This document shows, piece by piece, positions 1,368-38,638 of a stretch of 44,174 nt of DNA. Position numbers and translations under genes: made by a program. The stretch comes from Deltaproteobacteria bacterium. GTDB taxonomy: Bacteria; SAR324; NAC60-12. The stretch spans positions 1 to 44,174 of the forward strand of contig JAYOTF010000029.1 of assembly GCA_038150265.1 (NCBI GenBank). Direction: 5' to 3'. The notes under the pieces were generated by a model, which saw only the letters and a list, made by a program, of their open reading frames with translations, was not told the origin of the DNA and did not search any database. How positions within the stretch are numbered: the stretch's first letter is position 1; every line of letters begins with the position of its first letter.

Positions 1368-1820
1368 TCAGGAGGCGGCTTGCAAAGACGCCAGGTCCTG
1401 CAGCACCTCCTCGGCATGAGTCGCAGGGGAGACGGAGTCATAGATCTTGCGCAAGATCCCTTCCGGATCAATCAGGAAGGACTTGCGGTTGGCAAAGCCA
1501 ATGAGGTTCTTGACCCGGTACTGATGCACCACCTTCTTTTCAGCATCAGAAAGCAGGGTCACGGCCAGGTGGTACTTGTCCGCAAACTTTCGGTGGCTCT
1601 GAACCGAATCCGTGCTGATTCCCAGCGGCACCGCCTGAATGGCTTCAAACGCTTTGAGGCTTTCTCCAAAAGCCTTGGCTTCCTTCGTTCAGCCAGGGGT
1701 GTCGTCCTTGGGGTAGAAGAACAGGAGCACCCACTGGCCTCGGTAATCGGCAAGCGCCCGCTCGGTGCCGTCTTGATCCGGCAAGGTAAACTCAGGCGCC
1801 GGTTGATTCACGTCCAACAT
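1368..1820 (-). CDS. bcp: Selenocysteine-containing peroxiredoxin (Bcp/PrxQ, AhpC/TSA family), Sec at codon 44
   Basis: ATG at 1820 with a GGAGAG RBS. Reads MLDVNQPAPEFTLPDQDG...VLLFFYPKDDTPG-TGA(1691-1689)-TKEAKAFGESLKAFEAIQAVPLGISTDS in frame with track ORF 1368..1631. The TGA occupies the peroxidatic Cys position of PxxxTxxC; 150 aa with readthrough. Confidence 0.93.
1657..1675 (-). promoter_or_regulatory. Bacterial SECIS-like hairpin
   Basis: mRNA AGGCUUU-UGGAG-AAAGCCU: perfect 7-bp stem with a G-containing apical loop, starting 13 nt 3' of the in-frame UGA. Confidence 0.8.
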
Positions 1821-2317
1821 GAACTTTCTCTCCAAAGTGTCAGGAATGAAGGGGGAGCAGAAAACAGACGATTCCCCCTCCTGCTCAAAAGCCCCCTAAC
1901 CAGATTCTCACGAATCCTTTCAGATGCAAGAATTTTACGCCAGTGTGGGGCGCCCCCTTTTTTTCCGAACACACTCCGGAGCCTTCTCCCAGAAAAATCA
2001 TGGACTTGCTGGAGGCCCCGGTTCAAGGAGCGGCCCAACCAGCAGAGGTGGACTCCAATTTTGTCCCAGGCCCCTGTCCAGGTGAACAGAGGGACCTGCT
2101 TTCTTCAGAAAGATATTTTTTTATGATGGATTCTTACAGAAAAATTCGATAGAGCTAATCCTTCCAGTTGCTCAATTGGTTTTTCCCCCTGAGCCAGAGA
2201 ATGATCATGGATGACATGCGTGCTGCCCTTCCTCTTCATGGAGCGACCTTCTCTTCTGCCGACAGGGAGCCCGGAGGCTCCTCTTTTTTCCAGCATCGGC
2301 CCCTCAGACCTCGTTCC

Positions 2318-3949
2318 ATGACTCACCCCCCAGGCCTTGAGCAGAATCTGGAGTTCCTCACTCACGCGCTCCAGGAGGACTCCCTGCAACCCGAACAGGT
2401 CCTCCAGCATCCGGAGTTGGCCCCGCATGCAGCGCTCTTCGAGGCTGCTCGCCTGCTGACGGAGCAGGTGCAGGAAGAGAGGGAGCAGCAGCGGCAGGAG
2501 GTTCAGATCCTCCAGACGGCCCTCCGGGAGGCGGCGGTGGCGGTGTGGAACTGGGACCTGGAAACGCAAGAAGGCTGGTGGTCTCAAGAGCTGCTGGACC
2601 TGTTTGAGGTTCCGGAGGGCGCCCCGCTTCCAGAAACCCTGCACGCCCGCATCCGGCACAAGGACTTCAAGAGGATGCAGGAGGCGCTGAGGGGGATCCG
2701 CCGCGGAGAAGCCTTCCCCAAACTCGTGATGCCCCTGCAGCTTCCCTCTGGCACCCGGCGGATCCTGGCGATGACCGGCGTGGTGCTGGAAGGGCGTTCC
2801 GGGAGGCAACTGGCGGGACAGGTTCAGGACATCACGACCCTGGCCGATCTGCACGAGGAGCAGCACCACCTCAGCTCGTTGCAGGAGCAGCTCGGGGCCA
2901 TGGGCATTTCCGTGATGCGCTACGACCCGAAAACCCGACGGTATCAGCTCACCCCTCACCTGCTGGAGACCGGGCTGTTTGGCGCCACCGCCACCCTGAC
3001 CCCCGAGGAGTTTCAGCGCTTCTTCCGAAACTCGGTTCATCCGGAAGATCAGGGGGTGCTGCTTCGTTATGAAGAAGAGCTGGCCAGCCGGGGAGAAGGC
3101 TATCAGGTCCGCTTCCGTTGCTGGCTCCACCAGCACTGGAACTGGCTGGAGCTTCTGGCACAGCAGGTGGAAGCCGGCGGAGCCAGCGAGCACCGCCTCT
3201 ACCTCATCCGGGACATTGATGAAGAAGTGGCGCTGCAGCATGAGTTCGAGCGACAGGAGCGGGAGACCTCCCTGTGGTTGATTGGCCAGCAGTTTCTGCA
3301 TGAGCTTTCCACCCCACTCACCTCCATCTCCATGGCCCTCGAGTTCCTCCAGAGCAAGCGTCCGGAAGGCGTCGAGAAGCCGCTGCAGCAGGCCCTTGCC
3401 GCCAGGGATCAGATTCACCTGCTCCTCTCCAACCTCCGCAAGCTGATGCGGGCCACCCGTTTTGATGAACTCTACGAGATCAATACGGTGGAGATGGCCA
3501 CCCGCGTTTCCAGCTTCCTCGGGGGACTCGCCCGGCACTGTGGTGCTGCTGTGGAGCTGGAAATCGAGCCCAACCTTCCGTGTTTCCGAGGCCGCGAACT
3601 GGGGGTGCTGCAAGCCCTGCTCTGCCTCATTGAAAATGGCTGTGAGGCCCAGCAGTCCGTTTCGGTCCAGAAGCCCCTTCAGGTCCGCTTCCGCTGTGGA
3701 GAGCAGGAGCTGCTGATTGAGGTGGAAGATTTTGGCCCAGGCATTTCCAGGGAGCTGCAGCCCCTGATCCTCTACCGGGGCTTCACCACCAAATCAGAGG
3801 GGACGGGTTATGGGCTGAGCATGATCCAGAACATTGTTGACCAGCACCAGGGCTCCCTGGAACTCCTCACCCAAACGCCGGAGCACCCGGGGACGCTCTT
3901 TCGCATCCACCTCCCTGAGCTGCCCCCCACCGCATCAAGTTCGTCCTAG
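2318..3949 (+). CDS. PAS-domain sensor histidine kinase (cytoplasmic, orphan)
   Basis: PAS-like segments ('VWNWDLETQEGWWS', 'VHPEDQ'), H-box FLHELSTPLTSI, N-box LIENGCEA, G1 EDFGPGI, F-box FTTK, G2 GTGYGL. ATG 2318 preferred; the frame is open from 2168. Confidence 0.9.
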   Translation: MTHPPGLEQNLEFLTHALQEDSLQPEQVLQHPELAPHAALFEAARLLTEQVQEEREQQRQEVQILQTALREAAVAVWNWDLETQEGWWSQELLDLFEVPEGAPLPETLHARIRHKDFKRMQEALRGIRRGEAFPKLVMPLQLPSGTRRILAMTGVVLEGRSGRQLAGQVQDITTLADLHEEQHHLSSLQEQLGAMGISVMRYDPKTRRYQLTPHLLETGLFGATATLTPEEFQRFFRNSVHPEDQGVLLRYEEELASRGEGYQVRFRCWLHQHWNWLELLAQQVEAGGASEHRLYLIRDIDEEVALQHEFERQERETSLWLIGQQFLHELSTPLTSISMALEFLQSKRPEGVEKPLQQALAARDQIHLLLSNLRKLMRATRFDELYEINTVEMATRVSSFLGGLARHCGAAVELEIEPNLPCFRGRELGVLQALLCLIENGCEAQQSVSVQKPLQVRFRCGEQELLIEVEDFGPGISRELQPLILYRGFTTKSEGTGYGLSMIQNIVDQHQGSLELLTQTPEHPGTLFRIHLPELPPTASSSS

Positions 3950-22188: not shown

Positions 22189-23568
22189 CTAGCTCTGCAA
22201 GAGGTGCTCAAGGCAGGAACACAGCTCCGGAACCTCATCAGGGAGCAGCGTCCGGAAGTCCAGCCAGAGCGTGTGATCCACAATTCGCCCAATGACGGGC
22301 AGGGGGCCCTCGCGCCGGAGGCGCTCCTGAAGGTCGTGGGCCGAAGCCGTTTCATGCTGGAGCACCAGCCCCCAGGACGGCAGCTGAAGCTCCGGAAGCG
22401 CGCCGCCTCCCGTCAGAGACGTCATGGGCTGCGACTGAAGGGACCAGGCTGGGCCGGGCACAAGCGACTCCCGCACCCCTTCCACCGTTGCTCGGATTCC
22501 CTCCGGAGTGCGTTCCAGCAGGTGAGGCGTCAGCAGGTGTTCCGGAACCTGCTCCGGATTCCAGTAGGTCTGCAGCACGGCTTCCAGCGTCGAGAGCGCC
22601 AGCTTGTCGAGCCGAAACGCCCGGTAGAGCGGGTGCTTCCGGATCTGATCCAGCAGCGGCTGCCTGCCCAGCATCAGGCCGGCCTGCACTCCGCCGAGCA
22701 GCTTGTCTCCACTGAAGGCGACCACATCCACGCCAGAGGCCAGAACCTGCTGCGCGGTCGGGTACTCCCGGAGGCCCTGCTGCTGAAACGCGTAAAAGGA
22801 GCCGCTTCCCCAGTCGTAGAGCGAGTGCAGGTTGCGCTGGCGAGCCAGCTGGGCCAGCTCCGGAAGCGCAACTTCTTCCGTGAAGCCCACCAGGCTGTAG
22901 TTGGAAGGGTGCACCTTGAGGAGCGCAGCGGTTCGCTCCGTAATCGCAGACTCGTAGTCTGAAAGCCGGGTCCGGTTGGTGGTCCCCACTTCCACCAGCT
23001 CGCATCCGGCTTCCCGCATGATGTCTGGAATCCGGAAGGAGCCTCCGATCTCAACCAGTTCTCCGCGGGACACAATCACCTCGCGCCCTGCTGCCAGGGT
23101 CCGGAGCATGAGAAAGACTGCCGCTGCGTTGTTGTTGACGGCCAGGGCGGATTCGGCACCAGAGAGCCCCCGAAGCAACTGCCGGAGGGCGGTGTCCCGG
23201 TGTCCCCGTTTTCCGGTTGCCAGGTCAAACTCAAGGGGGGTGTAGTGGCTCCACTGAGACAGCAGGGGTTCCAGTAAGGCGCGGGGAAGAGGAGAGCGTC
23301 CGAGGTTCGTGTGGACCACCACGCCGGTCAGGTTGAGGACCTTCTCGGCGCGTTGAGGAAGGGAGTGCTGGACAACGGAGGCGACCCACTCCAGAGCCTC
23401 TTGACGAGACTCCGGAGGCGACGGGTCCTCCTGAAGTCGGGCACGGCAGTGCTGCAGGGCCTGATGCACCCAGTGCCGGACGGGTTTCCCATGCGGCAGC
23501 CCCTGCTGGGCCAGGAAGTGATCGACCTCCTGAACCGAAGGGAGGGTACGAAAGCGCCCCGCGCTCAT
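22189..23568 (-). CDS. selA: L-seryl-tRNA(Sec) selenium transferase
   Basis: NLTGVVVHTNLGRS, VNNNAAAV, SRGELVEIGGSFRIPDIM, EVGTTNRT, KVHPSNY, PLP-lysine motif FSGDKLLGG. Confidence 0.97.
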   Translation of the reverse strand: MSAGRFRTLPSVQEVDHFLAQQGLPHGKPVRHWVHQALQHCRARLQEDPSPPESRQEALEWVASVVQHSLPQRAEKVLNLTGVVVHTNLGRSPLPRALLEPLLSQWSHYTPLEFDLATGKRGHRDTALRQLLRGLSGAESALAVNNNAAAVFLMLRTLAAGREVIVSRGELVEIGGSFRIPDIMREAGCELVEVGTTNRTRLSDYESAITERTAALLKVHPSNYSLVGFTEEVALPELAQLARQRNLHSLYDWGSGSFYAFQQQGLREYPTAQQVLASGVDVVAFSGDKLLGGVQAGLMLGRQPLLDQIRKHPLYRAFRLDKLALSTLEAVLQTYWNPEQVPEHLLTPHLLERTPEGIRATVEGVRESLVPGPAWSLQSQPMTSLTGGGALPELQLPSWGLVLQHETASAHDLQERLRREGPLPVIGRIVDHTLWLDFRTLLPDEVPELCSCLEHLLQS

Positions 23569-38047: not shown

Positions 38048-38587
38048 TCAGGAATCGTGGTCGAGCAGCTTCTCCAGCTGCGTGGTGATTTGAGGGTGAG
38101 TGGGACGCATGGAAGAGTCGAACCGGCCCACGGGACGTCCGTCCTGATCGACCAGAAACTTCTCAAAGTTCCAGCGCACCTCGCCCTGCTTGCCCGCGGG
38201 AGCGGCTTCCGTCAGGTACCGGTAAATGGGATGCTTGCTTCCGCCCCGAACACGTGTGGAAGCAAAAAGCGGGAAGGTCACCTGATACCCTTCACAGAAT
38301 TCCTTGATCTCCTCATTATCCTGATACTCCTGATTGAAATCGTTGCTGGGAAACGCCAACACCGTGAAGCCCTGGTCCTTGTACTGGCGGTAGAGCGCCT
38401 CCAGATCCTTGTACTGCGGGGTGTAGCCACACATGGACGCCGTATTGACGACCAGGGTGACCGTTCCTCGGTACGCGTCGAGCGCGAGTTCCTCTCCATC
38501 AATGTCTGGAGCCTTGAGGTCGTAAAGCGAAGGAGCGGCCCAAGCCGTTGAGGCCATGAGCAGGAGGCCCAAGCAGAGGTAGCGCAT
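38048..38587 (-). CDS. gpx: Exported glutathione peroxidase family protein (Cys type)
   Basis: Signal peptide, VVNTASMCGYTPQY (Cys = TGT), LAFPSNDF.QE, WNFEKFLVD. Confidence 0.93.
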   Translation of the reverse strand: MRYLCLGLLLMASTAWAAPSLYDLKAPDIDGEELALDAYRGTVTLVVNTASMCGYTPQYKDLEALYRQYKDQGFTVLAFPSNDFNQEYQDNEEIKEFCEGYQVTFPLFASTRVRGGSKHPIYRYLTEAAPAGKQGEVRWNFEKFLVDQDGRPVGRFDSSMRPTHPQITTQLEKLLDHDS

Positions 38588-38638
38588 GATGAATTTCCCG
38601 AATGAGGTGAATGCCGAAGACTGCAAACCGCCTTCCCG

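Follow-up and report, generated by a model that had tools for sequence, protein, structure and literature searches.

A predicted cysteine-free selenocysteine form of the BCP/PrxQ peroxiredoxin in a SAR324 bacterium

Selenocysteine (Sec) occupies the peroxidatic position of PrxU of Eubacterium acidaminophilum, reportedly described by Sohling in 2001, and is predicted to do so in the protein considered here, although the latter is a different type of peroxiredoxin (60.6 bits against the 233-position PrxU model NF040737, cut-off 270). Peroxiredoxin (Prx), corresponding to COG1225 (Bcp) and carrying a TxxU motif, is a listed family of prokaryotic selenoproteins (PMC9312934 Table 1; PMC13188914). 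Sec-containing Prx is recorded as 43 genes (PMC1088965), as 12 proteins with 5 Cys-to-Sec events (PMC1794560), as 91 proteins in 78 organisms (PMC5029168) and, in the GOS survey of 2008, as 253 sequences (PMC2398784). The selenoprotein Prx entries in Dataset S1 of the GOS survey include 13 sequences with the AFGESL motif of the clade to which our protein belongs, and one Cys-free entry differs, by eye, at a single residue from a clade member (L027) that is 54% identical to our protein; predictions of Sec-containing proteins from this clade without any Cys have been in print since 2008 (PMC2398784). The literature searched, in which subscription journals were thinly covered, yielded no biochemical work on a BCP that has Sec and lacks Cys.

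Around one third of PrxQ proteins are without a resolving Cys, and a 1-Cys route with an external thiol has been described for PrxQ (PMC4749874). The 1-Cys BCP of Burkholderia cenocepacia (Clarke et al., cited in PMC8945050 and PMC6590489) shares with our protein the PrxQ fold and active site, the lack of a resolving Cys and the need for an external thiol, but has a peroxidatic Cys where ours is predicted to have Sec. The selenoprotein MsrA of Clostridium oremlandii, which likewise has one catalytic Sec, no Cys and a dependence on an outside thiol, is a mechanistic analogue differing in fold and substrate (PMC4479559). In contrast to the 2-Cys BCP/PrxQ proteins such as Sulfolobus Bcp1 (3drn) and Xanthomonas PrxQ (the 5iiz series), with a resolving Cys in alpha-2 or alpha-3, our protein has Lys49 in place of the alpha-2 (+5) resolving residue and Ala80 in place of that in alpha-3.

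Here we describe a bcp/prxQ gene on a contig of 44,174 nucleotides (JAYOTF010000029.1 of assembly GCA_038150265.1), the whole of which was analysed and is referred to as the window. The gene has in common with the Prx selenoprotein family (COG1225/PF00578) its domain, the PxxxTxxU motif and a UGA followed by an in-frame downstream hairpin, and is a further member of this long-known bacterial selenoprotein family, not a new family.

Reading frame, family and predicted decoding of UGA44

For bcp/prxQ the standard-code list of open reading frames contains only an 87-aa fragment starting at GTG (1368..1631). Translation with TGA read as U agrees with the frame proposed in the preliminary description, namely 150 codons from ATG 1820 interrupted by a single TGA at the peroxidatic site, in the context FYPKDDTPG-U-TKEAK, with Lys at +5 and 0 Cys (Table 1). 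The bcp genes of the congeners end in TAA at the position of the terminal TGA, for which reason readthrough of that codon was rejected. A promoter scan of the bcp strand returned 0 sites and also failed to detect a terminator there. RNA run X13 contained one contig of 232 nt (1639-1870) that is possibly DNA and no proof of expression.

Table 1 Features of the bcp/prxQ locus and of the selenocysteine machinery (positions in the window unless a contig is named)
Feature	Position	Strand	Basis or detail
bcp/prxQ coding sequence, predicted selenoprotein, 150 aa, no Cys	1368..1820	-	ATG 1820; terminal TGA 1370-1368; translation with TGA=U
Active-site motif P37xxxT41xxU44; Sec codon TGA at 1691-1689	1689..1712	-	translation, 40-row alignment, solved BCPs
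Predicted bacterial SECIS: 8-bp stem 1675-1668/1664-1657, loop GGA 1667-1665	1657..1675	-	21 nt after UGA, -7.6 kcal/mol
Codon 49 (AAG, Lys), +5 position; overlaps SECIS stem foot	1674..1676	-	sequence, homologue comparison
Catalytic Arg112 codon, 3′ of UGA	1485..1487	-	invariant in 40-row alignment A3
Shine-Dalgarno-like GGAG, 9 nt 5′ of ATG 1820	1830..1833	-	sequence
Histidine kinase, divergent from bcp	2168-3949	+	HATPase_c over cut-off, HisKA weak
selA, Sec synthase	22189..23568	-	TIGR00474 513.8 bits, cut-off 267.9
selB	C7:62700-64589		387.1 bits, cut-off 242.25, model positions 2-578 of 581
selD	C4:115413-116336	-	362.4 bits, cut-off 125; in-frame TGA, CxU, SECIS-like hairpin
selC, tRNA-Sec	C2:106399-106497		65.5 bits, cut-off 47; anticodon TCA

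The product matches Pfam AhpC-TSA (PF00578) at 134.8 bits (cut-off 26). Modelled by AlphaFold with C for U it has a mean pLDDT of 96, and Sulfolobus Bcp1 3drn is its best match both among solved structures (TM 0.90-0.92) and by sequence (E 7e-29), with U44 aligning to the peroxidatic site of the solved BCPs. P37, T41, C/U44 and R112 are invariant in the 40-row alignment A3, in which the loop before Arg112 is ~7 residues shorter in our protein than in most BCPs. Its top NCBIfam matches are PrxQ and PRK09437, at scores below the equivalog cut-offs (105.7 against 140 for PRK09437 and 120.8 against 260 for PrxQ NF053650); judged by sequence, the protein is a BCP/PrxQ at the subfamily level and a member of neither named equivalog.

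Codon 44 is TGA in both congeneric genomes. Across 88 genomes of the phylum we identified 29 loci at E<=1e-22, with TGA at this codon in 24 and Cys in 5, and a selA match was present in 23 of the 24 genomes with a TGA-containing BCP (baseline 75/88), the exception being a genome that is 61% complete. Outside the phylum the best 80 of 553 genome loci comprise 50 TGC, 20 TGT and 10 TGA, and the best 80 of 552 metagenome loci 55 TGC, 15 TGT and 10 TGA, the codon alternating in these best-80 sets only between Cys codons and TGA. The Cys/Sec pairs at codon 44 that the preliminary description had proposed to look for in an alignment with Bcp/PrxQ homologues were found.

The bSECIS model specifies a loop of 3-9 nt, a stem of 4-16 bp, G in the first two loop positions, a spacing of 16-37 nt and a minimum free energy <= -7.5 kcal/mol (PMC13188914), and the hairpin downstream of UGA44, its spacing counted from the UGA to the start of the loop, lies within these limits (Table 1). 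In 9 rows of the clade 97.2% of stem cells are paired and 2/8 pairs are changed on both sides, a level of pairing reached by 1/500 shuffles and compared with a maximum of 66.7% for slid structures, although the relatedness of the rows inflates these covariation figures. Among the congeners the SECIS codons 49-55 carry 0-1 synonymous changes over ~4.4 sites, compared with a dS of 0.88-1.45 in codons 56-150. A hairpin at -5 kcal/mol or better follows the codon in 24/35 TGA homologues, the 35 including three broken copies, compared with 3/75 Cys homologues; as the homologues are mutually related, this and the other TGA-versus-Cys contrasts are not independent. The stability of the hairpin relative to shuffles is not significant alone (z = -0.74), 1505/5000 synonymous recodings fold as well, the peptide itself favouring the stem, and a looser hairpin rule matches 2618/38521 genomic TGAs. 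Since stability alone is not significant, the case for the hairpin rests on position, conservation and covariation.

The selA gene recognised in the preliminary description scores over its TIGR00474 cut-off, and selB, selC and selD, for which it had proposed a search, were all found on other contigs of the window genome (completeness 97.8%), so that all four genes are present. SelD is itself a predicted selenoprotein. A scan of all genomic TGAs by coding score plus hairpin kept 57 candidates. First to third in rank came a UxxC protein resembling TlpA, a probable false positive in antisense and a UxxC protein that is presumably PrdB-like, with bcp 4th; the scan missed SelD. Scan candidate C28:36105 was rejected, its translation reading by eye like an antisense frame. 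The two UxxC proteins are candidate selenoproteins: G000:C26:23760-24272 (-) is TlpA/ResA-like with a signal-peptide-like N-terminus and a downstream hairpin, and G000:C3:66654-67484 (-), which by its motif is presumably the PrdB-like protein, has a strong hairpin with a GGTCG loop.

UGA44 of bcp/prxQ is very likely decoded as Sec. By established bacterial Sec biology, SelB with Sec-tRNA(Sec) would bind the hairpin 21 nt downstream and insert Sec at UGA44; in the absence of selenium, translation would end with the 43-aa truncation.

Absence of other cysteines and recycling of Sec44

Most Cys-type BCPs have an alpha-2 resolving Cys at the codon 49 position. Among the sampled BCPs this +5 Cys is kept in 5/35 TGA forms compared with 57/75 Cys forms, and the domain has no other Cys in 25/35 TGA forms compared with 11/75 Cys forms. 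A quick tree of 108 rows, which excluded the broken copies L033 and L034 and also L037, identical to L024, required 10 Cys/Sec changes, at least 4 of them forced, and placed Sec forms, most of them lacking any other Cys, in several separate branches. Codon 49 overlaps the stem at its foot, and the SECIS may thereby have contributed to the displacement of the resolving Cys.

Further Sec-BCPs were observed in families f2 and f7. In family f2, 14 Sec-BCPs (L117-L119, L122-L127 and L130-L134) form a further clade, set apart from the first but within the same order (quick-tree support 99); none has the +5 Cys, and their hairpin is mostly different, with a GGATTC stem and a 7-nt loop. Sec forms L121 and L128 and Cys forms L120 and L129 of family f7 fall in one fully supported branch and are all without any other Cys, a branch that by sequence appears to represent a recent Cys/Sec switch and would be useful as a natural pair.

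We consider it very probable that bcp/prxQ is an intact gene in which UGA44 is read as Sec to give a Cys-free enzyme, predicted to reduce peroxides and most likely to be recycled directly by thioredoxin. As known for peroxiredoxins, Pro37, Thr41 and Arg112 would position the selenolate of Sec44, which would reduce H2O2 or organic peroxides and be converted to a selenenic acid; selenenic intermediates are elusive (PMC10298544). Since a resolving Cys is absent both at +5 (Lys49) and in alpha-3 (Ala80), an outside thiol must resolve oxidised Sec44, and would do so via a mixed Se-S bond. The only complete reductant route found in the window genome consists of a single WCGPC thioredoxin (Trx) on contig C31 and TrxB on C43 (395.9 bits, cut-off 343), and direct reduction by Trx has been reported for a 1-Cys BCP (PMC8945050). 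We tentatively assign the role of resolving donor to this pair, with slightly less than even confidence.

It is possible, though less probable, that the same selenoenzyme is instead recycled by glutathione (GSH), its selenenic acid being glutathionylated and then released by a glutaredoxin (Grx) domain such as the CGHC Grx of the Prx5-Grx hybrid. For the 1-Cys BCP of B. cenocepacia, Trx is an accepted reductant but GSH/Grx is the better one (PMC8945050, PMC6590489), the C. oremlandii 1-Sec MsrA is reduced by Grx and not by Trx (PMC4479559), and the window genome encodes a GCS2-type ligase (160.5 bits, cut-off 21), a glutathione synthetase (NF009110, 419 bits, cut-off 408) and three Grx-domain proteins. 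None of these three is however a stand-alone dithiol Grx, E. coli-type GshA was not found in the window genome, and no glutathione reductase exceeded its cut-off there (best TIGR01424 match 248.5/606), the three top matches proving on rescanning to be two dihydrolipoyl dehydrogenases and one protein without a family assignment. The PF08886 profile had no match anywhere, controls included, and is uninformative. The presence of one Trx with TrxB, set against the lack of a glutathione reductase over cut-off and of an E. coli-type GshA, favours Trx over GSH/Grx, although both precedents point towards GSH/Grx.

A donor other than Trx/TrxB or GSH with a Grx domain is unlikely. The Sec-TlpA-like protein on C26 was rejected as reductant on the grounds that its N-terminus looks by eye like a signal peptide. 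The window also encodes a glutathione peroxidase-like protein (38048-38626, minus strand; PF00255, 119 bits) with an active-site Cys and not Sec.

Fused relatives and a possible sensor role

The Prx-PP2C fusions among the relatives of the window protein suggest a role as a peroxide sensor and not a scavenger, a reading we regard as improbable. The stand-alone Cys-free Sec-PrxQ would then be the unfused form of a Prx-PP2C relay, with oxidised Sec44 passing its oxidation in trans to a Cys of a signalling partner such as the divergent histidine kinase, the resolving Cys having been lost and its codon taken over by the SECIS stem. Among 36 protein matches PF00578 and PF07228 occur together in 12 and the DCTGHG Cys in 21, and two are 64% identical to residues 47-146 of the window protein; some of the nearest Prx domains detected beyond the genus, at this level of identity, are fused to PP2C phosphatases with the DCTGHG Cys. 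One fusion, L028 (G031:C118:7226-8554, open to the contig end), joins an SRPBCC-like domain, weak and scoring below cut-off, to a Sec-Prx (ADETFAU) and SpoIIE/PP2C, and groups in the quick tree inside the 8-row clade of the window protein; broken fusion copies occur in G030, G033 and G034, and that genus has many SpoIIE paralogues. The window gene itself stops at residue 150, where the congeners have TAA, and so is not such a fusion. The canonical PKDDTPG motif is complete in its protein but altered in several fusions, and the only SpoIIE phosphatase of the window genome has DVTGHG without Cys, no in-trans PP2C partner with the DCTGHG Cys being found there. The histidine kinase divergently adjoins bcp here and, judged from translation, in G028, but is not adjacent to it in G027 or in the other clade loci read.

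The SRPBCC-SecPrx-SpoIIE fusion of G031 was rejected as a new arrangement since a Prx-PP2C fusion selenoprotein is described in the GOS paper, in whose dataset an ADETFAU-type read also occurs; the N-terminal SRPBCC-like domain is not named in the available part of that description (PMC2398784). Two Prx-PP2C fusions, P0020 and P0021, have Trp where the clade has Sec, so that either the active site has truly been lost or the gene caller has translated TGA as Trp. In a single sequence, P0034, a 2-Cys BCP is predicted to be fused to a domain for DNA-alkylation repair (PF01035), which may be a gene-calling artefact.

Integrity of the TGA codon and of the downstream frame

Twenty sequencing runs were listed, mostly estuary, aquatic, mangrove and salt-marsh metagenomes, and 6 were compared with the locus. 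The TGA codon was crossed unchanged by contigs of five studies, this support consisting of assembled contigs and not raw reads, with one of the five possibly being the source of the assembly. Outside the codon, the X7 contig has 0 differing letters, the X1 and X13 contigs have 1 each (at 1937 and 1770 respectively) and the X3 and X5 contigs have 1 each within 1600-1780, at position 1770; the X9 contigs did not span the codon. TGC or TGT at 1689-1691, which the preliminary description had named as evidence against its reading, was not seen.

A pseudogene in which a Cys codon has mutated to a stop would require one base change from TGC or TGT to TGA, broken copies do occur in the clade (L033, L034 and the fusion copies noted above), and other peroxidases are encoded in the window genome. 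This explanation is nevertheless very improbable, as the TGA is retained down to 36% identity and across families, the hairpin is conserved and the Sec machinery is complete, and the dN/dS of 0.074-0.085 in codons 45-150 of the three congeners (~0.08 3′ of the TGA) argues against it. The further possibility raised at the outset, that only a truncated product is made, is likewise opposed by the purifying selection, catalytic Arg and SECIS-like hairpin that all lie 3′ of the TGA. On computational grounds, conservation of the TGA, the machinery, the hairpin and purifying selection support the original inference of a 1-Sec PrxQ.

A genome-wide reading of TGA as another amino acid, or an assembly error at the TGA base, has a negligible probability and no support was found for either, reassignment being ruled out by the use of TGA as terminal codon in 15/23 long window genes, none of which has an internal TGA except bcp. 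ARAGORN detected a single tRNA with a TCA anticodon, namely tRNA-Sec, and assembly error is opposed by the TGA in contigs of five studies.

The mis-call by automated annotation that had been anticipated was borne out: the protein collection records a 43-aa N-terminal truncation for the window gene and for two relatives, and contained no full-length record of the 150-aa product when queried with C for U, a search in which a U-bearing record is undetectable. For this gene the result is mainly a correction of annotation, gene callers having cut at codon 43 both here and in relatives. A Cys-free Sec-PrxQ is useful but not surprising, given the existence of 1-Cys BCPs and of a 1-Sec MsrA. At 150 aa, soluble-looking, and with one Sec and no Cys, the protein would offer a clean test object for the resolution of a lone selenenic acid and its protection from over-oxidation.
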